Of a DNA stretch of 49,593 bases, positions 239-49,593 are shown in pieces (position 1 is the stretch's first letter; the number at the start of each line of letters is the position of its first letter). Source of the DNA: a virus (taxonomy: Duplodnaviria; Caudoviricetes). The notes below the pieces were generated by a model. That model was given only the letters and a program-made list of their open reading frames with translations. It did not search any database and was not told the origin of the DNA. A program made the translations under genes and the position numbers. The stretch lies in IMG/VR virus record IMGVR_UViG_3300025529_000009, positions 1 to 49,593 of that record, one strand, 5' to 3'.

Positions 239-1378
239 CTAAAGCGTTTTCGGACGACTTTGCTTCATCATCTTCTCGAAGTTGTCAGCAGCTTCTTTTT
301 GCATATCGGGCAAGACGTGGCTGTACACATCCATGGTTATGCCTACCCGGCTGTGTCCAAGTCGTTCTGAAACCACTTTCGGATGCTCTCCGAGCTGCAA
401 GAGCATCGTCGCGTGTGTGTGCCGCAGATCGTGGAAGCGAATGTACGGCAGGCCACTTCTCTTTATGATCCGCTCGTAATGCCGAAGGAGGTTGCGCGGG
501 TCTTGCGGCCGACCGTCATCGTAGCATACAACGAGATCGTGGTCCTGGTAGCCAGCGCCATATTGAAGCTTGAACTTGTTTTGCTTGGCCTTGTGAGATT
601 TTAACTCCTGAACAACGAAATGTGGGATGGCGATCCGCCTTTTCGCGCTTTTTGTTTTTGGCTCCTGGAAGATGATCCCTGAATTAGAGGGACGGTATAG
701 GGTCTGCTGCACGCTGATTCTAGCCTGATCGAAATCGATATCCTTCCAACGCAGGCCCAGAATTTCCCCGCGTCGCATGCCGGTGTAAATCGCCAGGACA
801 AATGCGATGTAGTATTTATCCTCCTTGGCATATGACAAAAACTCATTTGCTTGTTCTGCTGTCCAGGTGACGATTTCCTTTTGGGCCAGACGCGGAGGAT
901 CGACATGCTCCATGATGTTTTTCGGGATCAGCTGCCATTTCACTGCTTGGTTGAGGGCCTTACTCAGCACTGCGTGCAGATACTTAATGTAGTCGGCGGA
1001 GAGATCCTCTTTTTGAAGATCCGTCAAATATTTGGTGACATGCAATGGTGACAGCTTGTCCAACTCGTGGTGACCGAGCGCAGGGATGATTCGGCTCCTC
1101 ACGGCAACCTCGTGGTTGGTATAGGTGGATTGCCTGAGTTTTGTCTTTGCATAATTCTCCAACCAAAATTCCAAGTAGCTCGCCAGCGTTTGTTTCTTCG
1201 AAATGACCAGCTCGCCGCGCTCATACTGAGCGATCATCTCAGCGCATGCAATCTCCGCCTCTTTTTTGGTCTTAAATCCGGAGCGTGTAATCTGCCGGCG
1301 CTTTCCTGTCTCGGGGTCAGTCCCCAGAGAAACTGCGAACGACCAAGTACTGCCACGTTTTCTAAAATGTCCTTTCAT
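239..1378 (-). CDS. int: Prophage tyrosine integrase with N-terminal arm-binding domain
   Basis: N-term KRRQITRSGFKTKKEA; catalytic motifs TGMRRGE, HDLRHTHA, LGHS, DVYSH; next to attL. Confidence 0.95.
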   Translation of the reverse strand: MKGHFRKRGSTWSFAVSLGTDPETGKRRQITRSGFKTKKEAEIACAEMIAQYERGELVISKKQTLASYLEFWLENYAKTKLRQSTYTNHEVAVRSRIIPALGHHELDKLSPLHVTKYLTDLQKEDLSADYIKYLHAVLSKALNQAVKWQLIPKNIMEHVDPPRLAQKEIVTWTAEQANEFLSYAKEDKYYIAFVLAIYTGMRRGEILGLRWKDIDFDQARISVQQTLYRPSNSGIIFQEPKTKSAKRRIAIPHFVVQELKSHKAKQNKFKLQYGAGYQDHDLVVCYDDGRPQDPRNLLRHYERIIKRSGLPYIRFHDLRHTHATMLLQLGEHPKVVSERLGHSRVGITMDVYSHVLPDMQKEAADNFEKMMKQSRPKTL

Positions 1379-20944: not shown

Positions 20945-20985
20945 CATTCCGACAACTTAGTGGTTTCATCAGGAGGGTGAGCAGA

Positions 20986-21528
20986 ATGGCGCAAAAACAA
21001 GTATTAAGTCCGCAAATGCTTGAAGAGATTGCCCGTGTAGCTGTACAAGCAGTACTGGACTTTCAAGAGAAAGAAAAGCAGAAGCAGCAGAAGGCGAAAA
21101 AGGATTGGCGGCTGCGTAATACAAAACTGTTGTTGAAGCATTACCGGTCGTTCGTAAAACACAGCGAGGGCGTGAAGGAAAAGTTGTCGGCATTGGAGAG
21201 GGCAGAAGCCCTTGAAGAACTCTACACTGATGAGCTGGCGATCGAGGCAATCAAGCGAAGCAAAAAGCGGACGCTGGCGATGGTCCAGTTCATCCAAAAA
21301 ATGCTGGGCGTCTACAAAATGATGTGCGAAACGTCGGGGCAGCTAGAAGACATGAGACGATATCAGATCATCCACGAGCTGTACATCGCCGAAGAAAAAA
21401 GAACGGCGGAAGAATTAGCCGAATGTCACAAAATAGATACCAGAACGGTGTACAGAGACGTGAATGAAGCAGCAAAAACCTTGTCAGTTCTGATTTTTGG
21501 GGTTGATGGGGTCGAACTGGTCCGATGA
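20986..21528 (+). CDS. Late transcriptional activator (RinA/ArpU/Ltr-like)
   Basis: RLRNTKLLLKHYR and C-terminal HTH AEELAECHKIDTRTVYRD; last gene before the packaging module. Confidence 0.75.
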   Translation: MAQKQVLSPQMLEEIARVAVQAVLDFQEKEKQKQQKAKKDWRLRNTKLLLKHYRSFVKHSEGVKEKLSALERAEALEELYTDELAIEAIKRSKKRTLAMVQFIQKMLGVYKMMCETSGQLEDMRRYQIIHELYIAEEKRTAEELAECHKIDTRTVYRDVNEAAKTLSVLIFGVDGVELVR

Positions 21529-21536
21529 CAAAATCG

Positions 21537-21584
21537 TGTCAAAAAGACGTCATTTTCCCGTCACTCGTACCGTGATAGTATGAT
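21537..21584 (+). promoter_or_regulatory. Putative activator-dependent late promoter
   Basis: GTCA repeated with 11-bp period (21538, 21549, 21560), then TGATAGTATGAT containing a -10; no canonical -35. Confidence 0.6.
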
Positions 21585-21616
21585 ATCGTGGAAAAATATA
21601 CAAAGCGAAATGCACG

Positions 21617-21649
21617 AGCCATCCGAACAAACGGGTGGCTTTTGTTTTT
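21617..21649 (+). terminator. Intrinsic terminator in the late leader
   Basis: AGCCATCCG-AACAAA-CGGGTGGCT followed by TTTGTTTTT. Confidence 0.7.
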
Positions 21650-21660
21650 GGAGGGGTCGC

Positions 21661-21780
21661 ATGAAAATTATCCAGATCACGTTGCCAGTGAGAGAGTGGG
21701 AAGACTGCGTGCTGGCCTTCCGCGAGAAGGAAAAGCGCAAGTGGCAACGCAAGCTTGAAGCGCAGTGCGCGGGGAAATAA
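21661..21780 (+). CDS. Small basic protein, 39 aa
   Basis: RBS GGAGGGG; MKIIQITLPVREWEDCVLAFREKEKRKWQRKLEAQCAGK. Confidence 0.55.
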   Translation: MKIIQITLPVREWEDCVLAFREKEKRKWQRKLEAQCAGK

Positions 21781-21781
21781 T

Positions 21782-22016
21782 CGCGAGACATACGGCGTCG
21801 GCCACCTCGCTCCCCGTCCAGTGTGCCTCATATTCGAACACGCCAATCCTGCCCCAAGTGTGCAGTGACACGTACCTTTTGCGGCAAGCAGGGGCAAATG
21901 CTTGTCGGTTGGCTGGTATCCCGCCAGTCGGCTGCACTACCTCCTACGGCCTGTGACCGCAGCAGGCATAAGGATGGCTCGCGGCGGCTGCCTCACGCCG
22001 AAGGAAGTGAGGCATA
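21782..22016 (+). ncRNA. Candidate structured RNA upstream of terS
   Basis: Closing helix 21782-21791/21974-21983, GTGCAG/CTGCAC multibranch, terminal hairpin TGCCTCAC/GTGAGGCA. Confidence 0.55.
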
Positions 22017-22222
22017 TACAAAACAAACACTATGTCGGCGCCACGAATTTGGAAAAAATGGAAGTTCTTTATGCAGGATTTTATGCATACTTGCCTTCGG
22101 GAAATAAGCCAAAATGCCGAAAAATCAAGGGTGCATAAACATACACCGGCTGATAAAAGTTGAGTAGGGGTATAAAGCCCTTGGAGGTTTAGTGTTTTTT
22201 AGGGTTTTTGTACTTTTCCAGT

Positions 22223-22250
22223 GGGTCCGATAGCGAGTATTATGTAAACT
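22223..22250 (+). other. dif-like Xer recombination site
   Basis: GGGTCCGATAG-CGAGTA-TTATGTAAACT (11-6-11); right arm matches the B. subtilis dif right arm as recalled. Confidence 0.65.
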
Positions 22251-22329
22251 TCTTCAGGGACATTATGCATATCTTATGCATGGTAACAGCCTTTCATTTT
22301 CCAGTTTAAGGGCGGTGAGGTGACATGTA

Positions 22330-23133
22330 GTGGCAAGAGAACGAAGCCCAAACAGAGATAAAGCTTTCGATCTGTGGGTAAACAGCGCCGGCACTATGAA
22401 GTTGAGGGATATCGCTCAAGTCCTGGGCGTGTCCGACTCGCAAATTCGCAAGTGGAAGAACCAGGACAACTGGGATGACAAACTGAAAGGTAACGTTACC
22501 AATCCGAAAAGTAACGTTACCGATAACAGACAAAGTAACGCTTCCAAACGCAAAGGTGGGCCGGGGGCTCCGAAAGGAAACAAATACGCCGTAGGGAACA
22601 GAGGCGGAGCTGCGCCGAAAGGAAACAGCAATGCAGTCACCCACGGCTTTTTTCGTCGTATTTTCCCAGACGACGAGGAGACGCATGCCGTCATAGGAGA
22701 GATCGGCGTGAAAAGTCCCCTGGACATTCTTTGGGAGAACATTGTCATTCAGTACACGGCGATCGCGCGGGCTCAAAAGATCATGTTCGTCCGTGATCAG
22801 CAAGACTTGACGCGCGTACTAAAAAGACAGAAACCGGGCATGTTTGGAGACGAGGTTGAGTGGGAGTTGCAGCATGCCTGGGACAAACATGCAACGTTCC
22901 TGCAGGCTCAGTCCCGGGCCATGTCAACACTCCAGAACATGATCGCGAGGTATGAAGAGCTGTGCCGATCCGACTTGGCCACAGAGGAGCAGCGTCTGCG
23001 GATTGAAAAGCTCAAAGCCGAAATAGCCATGGTGAAAGGCGATGAGGAAGGCGCCCAGGATGACGGATTTATTGACGCGCTGAAAGGGAAAGCGCTGGAG
23101 GTATGGCAGCATGAAAGCGAGACTGAGGGTTAA
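22330..23133 (+). CDS. terS: Terminase small subunit
   Basis: N-terminal HTH (LRDIAQVLGVSDSQIRKWK..DNW), GAPKGNKYA and PKGNSNAVTHG repeats; overlaps terL. Confidence 0.9.
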   Translation: MARERSPNRDKAFDLWVNSAGTMKLRDIAQVLGVSDSQIRKWKNQDNWDDKLKGNVTNPKSNVTDNRQSNASKRKGGPGAPKGNKYAVGNRGGAAPKGNSNAVTHGFFRRIFPDDEETHAVIGEIGVKSPLDILWENIVIQYTAIARAQKIMFVRDQQDLTRVLKRQKPGMFGDEVEWELQHAWDKHATFLQAQSRAMSTLQNMIARYEELCRSDLATEEQRLRIEKLKAEIAMVKGDEEGAQDDGFIDALKGKALEVWQHESETEG

Positions 23134-24400
23134 GGCTTCGACGTTTCGCTGGAAGCCGTTTTCCGTCAAACAACTCCAGGTGCTCACGTGGTGGATGCCG
23201 GAGAGCCCGCACCACAACAAAAACGCGATCATTTGCGACGGGTCGGTACGCGCCGGAAAGACCGTCGCAATGTCCTTCAGCTACGTCTGTTGGGCGATGG
23301 AGATGTTTCAGCATGAGCAATTCGGGATGGCCGGGAAGACGATCGGAGCGCTTCGCAGGAATGTAATCGGTCCACTGAAGCAGATGCTCAAGAGCCGTGG
23401 GTATTACGTGCACGACAGCTTGACTGACAACATGCTCACGATCAGACGCGGCAGAGTGACGAACTACTTTTTCCTGTTTGGCGGAAAAGACGAGCGCAGC
23501 CAAGACCTGATCCAAGGGATCACGCTGGCGGGTATGTTCTTCGATGAGGTTGCCCTGATGCCGGAGTCTTTCGTAAACCAGGCTGTTGCCCGCTGCTCCG
23601 TAACGGGGGCAAAACAGTGGTTTAACTGTAACCCGGCCGGCCCGTACCACTGGTTCAAGCTTGCGTGGTTGGATCAGCTTGAGAAGAAAAACGCGCTCCA
23701 CCTCCACTTCACGATGGACGACAACCTGTCGCTTTCGGAAGAGCGCAAAGAATTCTACAAGCGTATGTTTACCGGCATCTTCTATCAGCGGTATATCCTC
23801 GGCTTATGGGTGTTGGCTGAGGGGATCATCTACGACATGTGGGATGATGACCTGAACACATTCGATGATGACGACCTTCCACTTGGCTTCAAGGCCAGAG
23901 CTCGCAGGTATATCGCCGTCGACTACGGCACCAGCAACCCCATGGTGTTTTTGGACATCTGGGATGATGGCGATACGTGCTGGATCGTAAACGAGTACTA
24001 TTACGACGGCCGCGCAAAAGGTGTCCAGAAAGAAGACAGCCAGTATGCCGACGATTTTGTGAAGTTCGTCGGGACGGAAACTCCTCCTCTCTACGTGATT
24101 CTTGACCCATCAGCGGCAAGCTTCAAAGCCGCGCTCCGCAACCGCGGGTACCGCGTGAAGGATGCGGACAACAACGTGGAAGACGGAATCCGGATGACGT
24201 CCACGATGATCGCAAAACGAAAACTGCGCGTACATCGGCGGAACTGCCCGAACTTCCTGAAGGAGCGCGCCAGCTATGTGTGGGATGAAAAGTCGGCTGA
24301 ACACGGTAAGGAAAAGCCCCTGAAGCAGAATGATCACAGCATGGACGCGATCAGATACTTCACGAAAACTGTAATCAAACCCAGACGTCTTCTGGGGTAA
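23111..24400 (+). CDS. terL: Terminase large subunit, PBSX-like
   Basis: DGSVRAGKT, FFDEVALM, CNP, VDYG, DPSAASF, DHSMDAIRY. Confidence 0.93.
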   Translation: MKARLRVKASTFRWKPFSVKQLQVLTWWMPESPHHNKNAIICDGSVRAGKTVAMSFSYVCWAMEMFQHEQFGMAGKTIGALRRNVIGPLKQMLKSRGYYVHDSLTDNMLTIRRGRVTNYFFLFGGKDERSQDLIQGITLAGMFFDEVALMPESFVNQAVARCSVTGAKQWFNCNPAGPYHWFKLAWLDQLEKKNALHLHFTMDDNLSLSEERKEFYKRMFTGIFYQRYILGLWVLAEGIIYDMWDDDLNTFDDDDLPLGFKARARRYIAVDYGTSNPMVFLDIWDDGDTCWIVNEYYYDGRAKGVQKEDSQYADDFVKFVGTETPPLYVILDPSAASFKAALRNRGYRVKDADNNVEDGIRMTSTMIAKRKLRVHRRNCPNFLKERASYVWDEKSAEHGKEKPLKQNDHSMDAIRYFTKTVIKPRRLLG

Positions 24401-45967: not shown

Positions 45968-46010
45968 AAGCCCTCTGCCGGGAAGCCGGTGGAGGGCTTT
46001 GTTTTGTTTT
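45968..46010. terminator. Terminator at the end of the late operon, between convergent genes
   Basis: AAGCCCTCTGCCGG-GAAG-CCGGTGGAGGGCTT followed by TGTTTTGTTTT. Confidence 0.8.
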
Positions 46011-47056
46011 TATCTGCTCCGTACCATCTCCACTAGTCCATGATCAAGCTGATGGCTGTGGAGCGGGTGCCTTTTCATGGCGTCCATGACCTTGCTCGTG
46101 TCGATCGCCAGGTAGTGCTCCAGCGTCTGGACACGAGCGTGGCCGCTGATCTCTTTCAAGACGAACAGGTCCACTCCCTGCTTGTGCAGGAACGTCAGGC
46201 AGCTACGCCGCAGCGCATGGAGGCTGAGCCCGTCCTTGTAGATGCCGAGCTTCTTGGCATATGACTTGAACAGCCAGTCGATCCCCTTCTCGCTGTATGG
46301 CTTACCGTATTTGGTCAGAAACAAGGTCTGGTCGTCCTCATTCGTGACAAAGTATTTCCTGCCGCACCGGTACCGGTTGATTTCGTGTCGACTCTTCCTC
46401 TTCCTCTTCTTTTTCTGAATCTCCTCATACACGATCCCGTTTTGCAGATAGAGCTGCAGCGCGTTGACCAACTGCGGAATCATCGGGATCACCCGGTCCT
46501 TACCGCCTTTCCCGTCCCGCACATGGATGTACCCCTCTTCGAAGTTGACGTCGTATGTTTTCAAGGTGATCAGCTCGCTCACCCGAACGCCAGTAAAAAG
46601 GAACGTGGCAAAGATGGCGTAGTCGCGGATCGCATACCTTCCAGTCAGCATAATCCCGTCCAGCAGAGTTTTTGCCTGCTGCTCCCCAAGCGTAATCGGC
46701 ACCGTCTTGGGCACCTTCATCCCCTGGATGTTCTTGGCCGGGTTTTTGACGATGTCGTAGTCGTCGTGATCGACAAAGTACTCATAGAACGACCGGATCA
46801 CGGACATATGCCGATTGACGGTACGTGGCGCCAGACCAGCGTCGACGAGACTGAATTTGTACTCACGGATATCCTGCTGCCGAAGCTCCAGCACGTCTTG
46901 CGTGGTAAAATGGCCGATGAACCGGCGCAGATCAGTTTCGTACCCAGTCAGCGTCTTCGGCCGCGCCCCTTTGTCGCTTTTCATGTACAGCAGAAATTCT
47001 CGCACGTAGAGATCGTTGGTCTGAGTTTTGACGATGCTCACCACATTCCCGTGCAT
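46010..47056 (-). CDS. Second tyrosine recombinase, XerC/D-like without arm domain
   Basis: TGVRVSE, GKGGKDR, HALRRS, SGHA, LEHY: complete R-K-H-R-H-Y set; RBS GGGAGGGG. Confidence 0.9.
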   Translation of the reverse strand: MHGNVVSIVKTQTNDLYVREFLLYMKSDKGARPKTLTGYETDLRRFIGHFTTQDVLELRQQDIREYKFSLVDAGLAPRTVNRHMSVIRSFYEYFVDHDDYDIVKNPAKNIQGMKVPKTVPITLGEQQAKTLLDGIMLTGRYAIRDYAIFATFLFTGVRVSELITLKTYDVNFEEGYIHVRDGKGGKDRVIPMIPQLVNALQLYLQNGIVYEEIQKKKRKRKSRHEINRYRCGRKYFVTNEDDQTLFLTKYGKPYSEKGIDWLFKSYAKKLGIYKDGLSLHALRRSCLTFLHKQGVDLFVLKEISGHARVQTLEHYLAIDTSKVMDAMKRHPLHSHQLDHGLVEMVRSR

Positions 47057-47131: not shown

Positions 47132-47174
47132 AAAAGCCGTTTCTCATGTCTGCCAGGACGGGAACGGCTTTTTT
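47132..47174. terminator. Bidirectional terminator-like hairpin
   Basis: AAAAGCCGTTTC...GGAACGGCTTTT. Confidence 0.7.
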
Positions 47175-47754
47175 AATTTTTTGTATCAGTAATTGATTTT
47201 TTGGAGCGGAAGTGGTGTTCCGTCGATTGAATAAGTCGCGGGATCGCGGCGCGAATCAGTTTGTCTGGCGAACCAAAGCGCTTGTTCGTGAAGGGACAAA
47301 CATACTGCGGGTGAGTTTTGATCTCCGTTAGGTCTTCGCCTGCTCGGAATAGATTACGAAACAGTGCATCCTTTGCCTCTGCCAATACCACAGCTGGCTT
47401 GTCGCTGTAATCCTCGGAGCAGATCATCCACAAATGCTCTACTTCACGCCGAGTGAGTCGTTCGACGTTCTGACTTGAGTTACTTTTTTCTAACTTGATT
47501 CGCAATCTACCGATTTCCTCGAATGCCTCCATCACTTGCTTCCTGTGGTTCTCGGCTTCTTCCTTCCAGTAGTGAACCGTATCGACAGAGGCCCCTTGCA
47601 TTGGCTGCTGCATCAGTTGACGAAGAAAAGCTGCCACAGTCTTTCCAGATGCTTCAATCTGTTCCCATTCCTTCGCCGTAAGCGTTAACGATACCTTGCG
47701 TGTAATTCCCAGTGCCTTGCGTCCAGCGCCTGGTCGTTTCCCACCTCGTGCCAT
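47173..47754 (-). CDS. Putative DNA-binding protein
   Basis: N-term RGGKRPGAGRK, then RKVSLTLT strand-helix-helix (RHH-like) and coiled coil; RBS AAGGAGTG. Confidence 0.75.
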   Translation of the reverse strand: MARGGKRPGAGRKALGITRKVSLTLTAKEWEQIEASGKTVAAFLRQLMQQPMQGASVDTVHYWKEEAENHRKQVMEAFEEIGRLRIKLEKSNSSQNVERLTRREVEHLWMICSEDYSDKPAVVLAEAKDALFRNLFRAGEDLTEIKTHPQYVCPFTNKRFGSPDKLIRAAIPRLIQSTEHHFRSKKSITDTKN

Positions 47755-47768
47755 ATGATCACTCCTTA

Positions 47769-47838
47769 TTGAATTAAGTTACTTAAATCATAAAAAGCAA
47801 ATTCTACGCTGTCAATAGATTTAAGTAACTTAATTCAA
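47769..47838 (-). promoter_or_regulatory. Sigma-A promoter bracketed by a perfect 21-bp inverted repeat
   Basis: TTGAATTAAGTTACTTAAATC / GATTTAAGTAACTTAATTCAA; minus-strand TTGACA-17-TATGAT (47815 to 47787). Confidence 0.8.
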
Positions 47839-47859
47839 AAAGAAAGAACAGGAGTTGGG

Positions 47860-48303: not shown

Positions 48304-48335
48304 TTGACAACAGCATTGACAACCAAATTGACAAC
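48304..48335 (+). promoter_or_regulatory. Putative integrase arm-type sites, right
   Basis: TTGACAAC three times with 12-bp period (48304, 48316, 48328). Confidence 0.75.
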
Positions 48336-48441
48336 GCACTTAAAGAAAACAGGTAAATTTAAATTAACTGGATACAAGAAAAACCGCAGTAGAATGCGGT
48401 TTGTGCAGTACGGTTAACTATTTGTAATATGGTTGATCAAA

Positions 48442-48488
48442 TTGACAGGGTGGGGGTCGCTGGTTCGAACCCAGTCCGGATCACCATA
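48442..48488 (+). repeat. attR core, 47 bp (duplicated tRNA-Val 3' half)
   Basis: Identical to 74-120. Confidence 0.95.
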
Positions 48489-49593
48489 ACAGGTATATCA
48501 AGGGTTTGTAGACGATTAGACAACATAATAAATGTTGTGGTCGAATACAAACACGCTTTCAAATAGAAAGCACACTTTCTTTCAGTATCAGAAAACTGGA
48601 GGGGAGTGTGCTTTTTCGTGTTATTAAAGTTTGCCATTAAAGATTTCAAGGAGGATCGAGAATTTAAAAACTTATCGCCTAAAACAATCGAAACGTACAT
48701 GTCATCCCTCAATGAGTTTCAAGAATTCTGCGGAAAACAAGAAATTGTCGATGTGAGTGACGTAACACCTAATATCATTAAAAATTATCTGATGTATTGT
48801 CAGAAAGAACGAAACAACAATGTAACGACCAGAAACAGTAAACTCCATGTTCTGAAAATCTTCTTTAATTACCTTGAAGAGATCGAAGTCATTACACAAA
48901 AACAAAATCCTGCTAAAAGAATTGGGTATGGGAAAGAGGACATAAAAATTGAAGTATTCCAAGATAGGCACATTCATCAAATGCTTAGTTACTACAGGAG
49001 ATTAAAGCAACGCGAAAAATCGTTCTTTGCTTACAGAGATTACACTATGATTGTGTTTTTGCTTGGAACAGGCGTTAGATTAGGCGAATTGGTCAATCTG
49101 ATCTGGAATGACGTTGACTTGAAAAACGGTACAATTATCGTTTTTGGCAAGAAGCGACAGCAAAGTTCTATCCCGTTAACCAAGAAACTGATCAAAGAAC
49201 TTTGCGAGTACAGGGTATTTTGTGAGCAGACGTTTGGTGAGATTCCCGACTATGTATTTACAGACGTTGAGGGGAAAAAACTCACTGATAATGCTGTAAA
49301 GTGCGTCTTTAAGCGACTAAAAGAGATCATGAATTTTTCTGATGTACGTTTATCAGCCCATACTTTCAGACACACTTTTGCCCATAGAATGCTGATGAAC
49401 GGTTGTGATGTTTTCACATTGCAAAAAATGCTCAGGCATAGCAATATTGCAATGACGCAAAGGTATCTGGCAATCTGGGGAGTAGCACTTAGGGAACAAA
49501 ATTCAAAATATAATCCATTGAACACCTTGGATATTTAGAAGAGGACACATTACCGGTCAAATGAAAAGAATCTGAATGAAAACTAAGGGAGGA
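48489..49593. mobile_element. Left end of a second integrative element in tandem at the same tRNA
   Basis: AT-rich DNA with a tyrosine integrase ~130 bp from the tRNA 3' duplicate; continues beyond the window. Confidence 0.7.
48618..49538 (+). CDS. Tyrosine integrase/recombinase of the adjacent element
   Basis: TGVRLGE, GKKR, SAHTFRHTFA, LRHS, TQRY; start at 48606 or 48618. Confidence 0.9.
   Translation: MLLKFAIKDFKEDREFKNLSPKTIETYMSSLNEFQEFCGKQEIVDVSDVTPNIIKNYLMYCQKERNNNVTTRNSKLHVLKIFFNYLEEIEVITQKQNPAKRIGYGKEDIKIEVFQDRHIHQMLSYYRRLKQREKSFFAYRDYTMIVFLLGTGVRLGELVNLIWNDVDLKNGTIIVFGKKRQQSSIPLTKKLIKELCEYRVFCEQTFGEIPDYVFTDVEGKKLTDNAVKCVFKRLKEIMNFSDVRLSAHTFRHTFAHRMLMNGCDVFTLQKMLRHSNIAMTQRYLAIWGVALREQNSKYNPLNTLDI

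Follow-up and report, generated by a model that had tools for sequence, protein, structure and literature searches.

The DNA analysed here (the window, 49,593 nt) comprises one complete prophage between two copies of a 47-bp repeat (74–120 and 48442–48488) in tRNA-Val; its early, packaging, tail and lysis modules are standard. Because the attL junction matches Brevibacillaceae genomes, with identity of up to 93% over 201 bp, we take the host to be a member of that family. The Xer-like site that is our subject is intergenic and lies between an HTH ORF that ends at 21528 and terS, which starts at 22330. The following genes bear on its interpretation.

239–1378, minus strand: phage integrase (Int), tyrosine type with an arm-binding domain; its own TGACAAC arm repeats are at attL and attR
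20977–21528, plus strand: HTH protein, probably late-regulator-like, the last of the early module (phrog_1558, HTH_11)
22330–23133, plus strand: terminase small subunit, terS (phrog_509, NF040601), 80 bp 3′ of the core
23111–24400, plus strand: terminase large subunit, PBSX family (phrog_2, TIGR01547)
46010–47056, minus strand: 348-aa Xer-like tyrosine recombinase with R-H-R-H-Y motifs and without an arm-binding domain

With an Int of its own and intact att repeats at tRNA-Val, the prophage does not need the site for integration, as the first-pass annotation had stated. The TGACAAC repeats flank the att core (164–228 and 48305–48335) as three direct copies on each side plus an inverted copy at 164, and are likely to be the arm-type sites of Int. 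Just beyond attR, at 48606–49538, lies a third tyrosine recombinase, so a second element probably shares the tRNA-Val site. An ARAGORN tRNA-Tyr call (48393–48486) overlaps attR and is probably the 3′ half of tRNA-Val plus chance sequence. A 25-bp inverted repeat (47765–47842; 96%, 28 bp apart) sits immediately 5′ of a 193-aa ORF (47173–47754) and the 348-aa recombinase, and is a candidate operator or a candidate site of that recombinase.

The dif-like core previously placed at 22223–22250 and the five TTATGCA positions reported around it all hold. The core reads GGGTCCGATAG-CGAGTA-TTATGTAAACT, and the TTATGCA copies start at 22069, 22081, 22263 and 22274 on the plus strand and at 22132 on the minus strand. 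The site has the following elements, in which invariance refers to four Brevibacillaceae prophages including the window.

22069–22087, plus strand: distal tandem of two TTATGCA half-sites with a 12-bp period (TGCATAA-AATCC-TGCATAA on the minus strand); 14 of 14 positions invariant
22098–22107, plus strand: conserved CGGGAAATAA motif; 10 of 10 positions invariant
22122–22131, plus strand: AAATCAAGGG, an A-tract/ATCAA motif directly 5′ of the box; its ATC-A core is retained in relatives
22130–22147, no strand: ARG-box-like palindrome, with the core TGCAT-AAAC-ATACA at 22132–22145
22146–22222, no strand: 77-bp linker, free in sequence and fixed in length; 20 of 77 positions invariant
22223–22233, plus strand: XerC (CodV)-type arm GGGTCCGATAG; 9/11 against the host-family dif and 10/11 invariant
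22234–22239, plus strand: 6-bp central region CGAGTA, variable and unlike the host TATATA
22240–22250, plus strand: XerD (RipX)-type arm TTATGTAAACT; 11/11 against the host-family dif
22266–22280, no strand: palindrome TGCAT-ATCTT-ATGCA (TGHAT-N5-ATDCA) formed by the 3′ TTATGCA pair, with its centre at +36.5 on the XerD side

We compared the core with the dif of the host family, a check that the first-pass annotation had proposed. The appropriate reference is the Brevibacillaceae dif, which fits the left arm far better than does the B. subtilis dif quoted there and is GAGTCCGATAA-TATATA-TTATGTAAACT in 29 of the 30 loci fetched; the dif pattern was found in 49 of 61 Brevibacillaceae genomes, nearly always once. 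Against this sequence the arms of the phage core agree at 20 of 22 positions (9/11 and 11/11), better than in all 100 shuffles of the window (best shuffle 17), whereas the centre agrees at only 2 of 6. The centre is also the part that varies. Two near-identical phages (L002 and L003) have CGAGGA and CGAAGA between arms that are both kept, the 40 members of the site family contain 35 distinct spacers, and 29 of the 40 agree with the host dif at two or fewer central bases. The surroundings differ too: none of 30 host dif loci has two or more repeats in the 200 bp upstream or any in the 100 bp downstream, and none of 29 has the N5 palindrome nearby. Identity with the chromosomal dif was rejected on the grounds of the centre and of an integration site that is not at the terminus, and a captured host dif is ruled out because the tRNA-Val site is 0.83–0.88 Mb from dif in three host-family genomes (G012, G024 and G042). 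A search for SRS/KOPS-like octamer motifs found none near the site. A weak sigma-70-like match (9/12) overlaps the core, in a promoter scan whose yield was at chance level (1 found, 1.0 expected).

The seven TTATGCA copies in the whole window are what chance would give (mean 4.9; reached in 25 of 100 shuffles), but the placing of five of them within 212 bp was seen in none of 200,000 random placements and none of 20,000 local shuffles. On the XerD side, 21 of 27 dereplicated sites have TGHAT-N5-ATDCA no further than 60 bp from the core (mean 1.2 and maximum 5 in shuffles); the set of 27 was partly chosen through these very motifs and is not phylogenetically independent. The centres of this palindrome are mostly 26.5 or 36.5 bp, and otherwise about 46 bp, from the core centre. 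The half-sites on this short side are phased at 10.5-bp steps (R = 0.98), whereas the upstream offsets are not cleanly phased. The third base of the palindrome varies between A, C and T, as in ARG half-sites. On the other side, the distal tandem is also a marker of dif-like cores elsewhere among the phages and plasmids of Bacillota, and GGAAATAA comes after the distal half-site in B. cereus-group phages too; the AAATCAAGGG A-tract is a possible bending element. These conserved motifs at fixed offsets around a dif-like core bear out the earlier comparison with plasmid Xer sites and their accessory sequences.

Other parts of that first description need amending. The repeats had been taken for XerD half-sites, a reading that we reject, as only the 7-mer is conserved and it matches an ARG half-site. 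The 22081 copy does match the XerD arm at 9 of 11 positions (2 mismatches), but the resemblance is incidental because the bases that follow TTATGCA differ in relatives. Likewise, AAATCAAGGGT at 22122 echoes the motif TCAAGGG beside attL (147) and attR (48498) as described, but that motif is present at three further places.

To place the central palindrome we used an ARG matrix made, without phage input, from 65 boxes that an ARG seed pattern located 5′ of argC; 33 of 35 Bacilli contributed boxes. Its top-scoring position in the window is 22130–22147, at 9.9 bits, the low end of a range in which host boxes mostly score 10–21 bits; three distinct Brevibacillaceae prophages (L062, L243 and L244) score 13.0–15.9 bits at the same −98 offset. 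The box of the host argC operator is nearly the same as the window box; these host operators have TGTATAAAAATACA or TGTATAAAAATGCA at their end, the latter identical to the middle element of L062. Full ARG boxes (≥9 bits) are found near 11 of the 27 dereplicated sites (2.3 in shuffles). The other 16 lack one, and most sites outside Brevibacillus have half-sites only, with no full N4 box there. Hits at 9 of 29 host dif loci were set aside as artefacts that overlap the XerD arm. ArgR is encoded in 21 of 21 host-family genomes, and XerC/XerD and an M17 peptidase are each present in 5 of 5. ArgR is the candidate accessory protein; the case for it is strongest at the central box and weaker at the tandem and N5 elements. 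Because 16 of 27 sites have no full box and the N5 and tandem spacings are non-canonical for ARG boxes, another binder is possible, and a different host protein could recognise the tandem and N5 elements. According to a passage of PMC2409434, ArgR failed in a binding test with an Arg-box look-alike (16/18) located near loxP of P1.

The expectation that the site would be conserved 5′ of terS in related phages is borne out in part. L062, L243 and L244, which were reached by motif and DNA searches, keep the whole layout 5′ of terS at identical offsets with a divergent linker, and across these three and the window 19 of 22 arm positions are invariant. However, among 32 viral loci with TerS relatives only three (L001–L003, TerS 99–100% identical) carry the core, and none of 14 genomic loci carries the core with repeats, several of these loci being short upstream. 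The site is patchy among TerS relatives and therefore dispensable. Contigs of relatives from other sequencing runs diverge inside the 77-bp linker with its length unchanged. The core was present in 5 of 20 Brevibacillaceae regions fetched, and 4 of these 5 had been chosen for matching the site.

Beyond these close relatives, motif scans brought the site family to light; a blastn search of GenBank phages with the region matched only the start of terS. A strict arm-plus-3′-pair pattern found 2 viral loci, and a pattern of the Brevibacillus layout found the core in 5 of 10 viral and 1 of 63 metagenome loci, all known already or identical to the window. Scanning part of the viral collection for the core alone gave at least 119 loci (about 350 estimated), many of them apparently in small unrelated elements, with the N5 palindrome in 14 of 103 scored. 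Scanning for the tandem alone gave at least 113 viral loci (about 480 estimated), and in 22 of these 113 a dif-like core lies no more than 250 bp away, whereas 385,784 bases of flanking DNA contain 2 cores. Some of the 22 are near-copies of the window or of one another. Gene content was scanned for 63 of 87 ORFs at 17 loci (14 of the 22, plus L055, L090 and L117). Terminase or portal genes are present within the 6–12-kb locus in 15 of the 17; the remaining two have an unannotated family that precedes terL elsewhere (L272) and an integrase (L327). The flank of L090 had no match among GenBank phages. Several sites lie between terS and terL or after the portal gene, and in the GenBank phages IEBH, LY4, phi4J1, BMBtp3, PfNC7401 and CUBc25 the site is 5′ of the terminase genes. 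In PfNC7401 and CUBc25 (L216/L217) the 28-bp core is inverted against the same accessory flanks as in IEBH, a natural test of which arm faces the accessory DNA. Priestia plasmids also carry the site. With one such copy as the query, 377 plasmid records match at E ≤ 1 (367 from Priestia or Bacillus), 7 over most of its length and many only partially, and several Priestia and Peribacillus plasmids have two or more cores in direct repeat, 300–700 bp apart. Near-identical sites occur in phages with a phrog_9 TerL and an HNH gene (L301, L311 and L330), a family that we take to be cos-type.

Which enzyme acts on the site can be judged from the recombinases that accompany it. The complete provirus G067, the source of L062, has the same layout and encodes serine recombinases but nothing that matches PF00589. 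IEBH, LY4, PfNC7401 and CUBc25 match neither PF00589 nor PF00239; in all, 5 of the 15 records searched had a PF00589 match, and the positive control recovered all three in the window. IEBH is listed as a proven circular plasmid prophage without a recombinase (PMC8026635, Table 1). Conversely, a good dif-like core is absent from three of four complete phages whose recombinases are 78–85% identical to the 348-aa protein; in the fourth (G003), a core without repeats lies beside a separate 188-aa mini-recombinase. Because the site occurs without any tyrosine recombinase, Int has its own arms and relatives of the 348-aa protein are mostly found without the core, host XerC and XerD are, on this comparative evidence, the most likely acting enzymes. 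A lambda-type attP with arm sites was also considered and rejected, as no cognate arm-binding integrase co-occurs with the repeats. The G003 locus (L492, 734–1530) runs from an ArpU-like gene through the dif-like core and the 188-aa mini tyrosine recombinase to a terS-like ORF, and is a different module at an equivalent genome position. G071, the genome of L002, has a near-identical packaging module and the 348-aa recombinase, with a serine integrase in place of the tyrosine Int of the window.

At plasmid sites of the cer/psi type, accessory proteins wrap two sites and XerCD then recombines direct repeats on one supercoiled molecule only, as described in passages of PMC5357621, PMC9113270, PMC2699498, PMC2831885 and bioRxiv 10.64898/2026.02.23.706985. 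In such a site the core is accompanied by some 180 bp of accessory DNA that includes an ARG box (passages of PMC2699498, PMC2409434 and bioRxiv 10.64898/2026.02.23.706985). This logic would fit the phage site because it has dif-like arms, a centre that would not pair with the host dif, fixed spacing and a regulator box on the XerC side. ColE1 cer and pJHCMW1 mwr, which use XerCD with ArgR and PepA, share with it a dif-like core whose centre is unlike chromosomal dif and, next to the XerC arm, a conserved stretch of about 150–180 bp that contains one ARG-box-like palindrome (22069–22222 in the phage, delimited by conservation only); the box of cer itself also has TGCATA. Both cer and the phage site have 11-bp XerC and XerD arms, but the centre is 8 bp in cer and 6 bp in the phage. 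The box centre is 98 bp from the crossover centre and 84 bp from the XerC arm, and the agreement of the former with the cer figure in a passage of PMC2409434 is a coincidence of measure: on the same measure the distance is 84 against 106 bp, which puts the box two helical turns nearer than in cer. Accessory DNA is on one side only in cer, whereas the phage family has a palindrome on the other side in the 21 of 27 sites noted above. The phage site further differs in its extra tandem half-sites, its XerD-side N5 palindrome, its Bacillota host and its presence in tailed phages as well as plasmids, and outside the core and box it has no sequence relation to cer or mwr. Because of the other-side palindrome and the inverted cores in some phages, we file it as a site that would work like cer and not as a member of the cer family.

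Other systems share single features with it. The psi centre is 6 bp long, as in the phage site. The directionality that accessory proteins impose at pSC101 psi (XerCD with PepA and ArcA) is, by analogy, the mode that we propose for the phage site; the phage accessory motif, however, matches ARG half-sites, and we know of no ArcA in this host group. The headful phage P1 has its recombination site, loxP, close to the origin of packaging. The phage site resembles loxP/Cre in being a single such site near a presumed packaging origin, but it has no cognate phage recombinase and its core is host-dif-like. The attP of IMEXs (CTX, VGJ, TLC and GGI) is likewise a dif look-alike on a phage, whereas the present prophage has its own integrase and tRNA site, a centre not homologous to dif and an internal site. 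The pdif sites, or dif modules, of Acinetobacter share dif-like cores, variable spacers and a setting in mobile DNA, and the plasmid members of the phage-site family are paired; in dif modules, however, two sites flank cargo, whereas the phage has a single core and a long accessory array.

The site is a real, conserved element, a variant of plasmid-type Xer sites. Its function is probably that of an accessory-controlled resolution site for host XerCD, acting in Bacillota as cer does in ColE1 and resolving circular phage multimers, a role already among those suggested for it and the best reading of the sequence data. Host XerC and XerD would bind the 28-bp core and exchange strands between two sites, with ArgR at the central box as an accessory protein and a PepA-like architectural partner. 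Recombination would be directional and would convert multimeric circles of phage DNA to single genomes, presumably in circular DNA after infection or excision or in a plasmid-like state, and the altered centre would prevent an integrated prophage from recombining with chromosomal dif. Among the points that count against this reading, the need for monomers is not obvious for an integrating phage, resolution alone does not account for the position at the packaging genes, and the paired close sites on plasmids fit cassette boundaries equally.

Alternatively, host XerCD might circularise the incoming genome by joining the two copies of the site that terminal redundancy would place in headful-packaged DNA, much as P1 circularises its incoming genome through loxP. 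The terminase and portal genes at 15 of 17 loci, the sites between terS and terL or after the portal gene and the PBSX-type TerL are consistent with this. The core in the window, however, lies upstream of terS. In SPP1, pac overlaps the promoter, ribosome-binding site and 5′ end of terS, and pacL is the non-packaged side (passages of PMC6316719); with pac in an SPP1-like position, a site upstream of terS would therefore fall outside the redundancy. The near-identical sites in presumed cos-type phages and on plasmids also argue against circularisation, as does the requirement of cer-type synapsis for supercoiled DNA that the sources excerpted above describe, and we consider it unlikely. We find it improbable that Xer-mobilised cargo cassettes (dif modules) instead land at the site or have left it behind as a boundary, an idea that would explain morons near packaging genes. 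Direct-repeat cores lie 300–700 bp apart on the Priestia and Peribacillus plasmids and 1.6 kb apart in the viral locus L095, L282 has a HicB-like gene beside a site between terS and terL, and spacers vary freely; but the only core of the window is not accompanied by cargo, a single full site is retained immediately next to terS in each of four distinct Brevibacillaceae prophages, and cer-type accessory arrays block intermolecular recombination (same excerpts). Recombination might not occur at all: XerCD with ArgR could tune or repress the terS promoter or pac, XerD could unload SMC-type complexes, as XerD-bound sites are able to do, or the repeats could be TerS boxes. The distance of 80 bp to terS, the sigma-70-like match over the core and the repression of Pcer by XerCD in cer (a passage of PMC2831885) suit such a platform. 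However, the promoter match is at chance level, both arms and the exact 6-bp length of the centre are retained, and PfNC7401 and CUBc25 have the core in the opposite orientation between unchanged flanks; the repeats are not TerS boxes, because they accompany five or more TerS families, occur downstream of portal genes and are present on terminase-free plasmids. This proposal too is quite improbable.

Two further roles raised by the first-pass annotation fare worse. Backup integration into chromosomal dif, with the site as an IMEX-type attP, could draw on the 20/22 arm match and on the use of dif look-alikes by IMEXs (passages of PMC5357621), but it is contradicted by the mismatched centre, by Int and its intact att repeats at a tRNA-Val site about 0.85 Mb from dif, by the mid-genome position of the site in every prophage seen and by the bare flanks of host dif loci; we regard it as very improbable. 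Still more remote is the idea that a phage recombinase is the user, be it the 348-aa protein (46010) or Int acting at arm-type repeats. The repeat–core–repeat layout is attP-like, and the 348-aa protein is Xer-like and also encoded in the genome of L002. Yet G067 has the same layout and no tyrosine recombinase, the genome of L002 integrates by a serine recombinase, the arm repeats of Int are TGACAAC, the 348-aa protein has no arm-binding domain and most phages with its close relatives have no good core. The occurrence of the site family in genomes without a tyrosine recombinase leaves both the 348-aa partnership and dif integration unsupported.

If the resolution reading is extended, Bacillota may have their own accessory-controlled Xer system, parallel to enterobacterial cer and psi, in which ArgR/AhrC would read phased TGHAT half-sites. 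It would be used by hundreds of plasmids and many tailed phages, with the site parked at the packaging origin so that host XerCD sets genome topology (monomer or circle). We advance this wider proposal tentatively and consider it possible but doubtful. If true, it would tie the state of the phage genome to the host arginine level and would explain recombinase-less plasmid prophages such as IEBH. We know of no Gram-positive counterpart of accessory-dependent Xer sites; those described belong to enterobacterial plasmids (a passage of PMC9113270). In the open-access literature, with subscription papers and supplements outside the scope of the search, we found neither a description of an Xer site with accessory DNA from phages or plasmids of Bacillota nor the motif grammar around a dif-like core or its link to ArgR, and passages of the Gabija preprint, PMC5418689 and PMC6669507 contain nothing on such sites. 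Now that a motif grammar and a candidate host factor can be named, B. subtilis offers a direct test of how Bacillus plasmids, and plasmid prophages that lack a recombinase, are maintained as monomers. The findings also bear on why tailed phages retain dif look-alikes at their packaging genes, and the site could provide a small host-driven stability or marker-excision element for Bacillus vectors.

The intergenic DNA 5′ of terS holds other features of note. At L004 and L010, the 300 bp 5′ of terS contain other att- or res-like stretches, with different repeats and CCCTTG/CAAGGG motifs and without a dif arm. In the window, a conserved non-coding element (21780–22020) lies just 5′ of the site, and it has matches in many of the 61 Brevibacillaceae genomes, often near terminase genes. 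An Rfam search over 21400–22500 gave no matches at E ≤ 1, the RNAalifold covariation term is near zero and the single-sequence z is −1.3. Thirteen aligned copies nevertheless give a multi-helix consensus, with 92.7% of cells paired and two-sided changes at 10 of 42 pairs, and the element is a candidate structured RNA of the phage.
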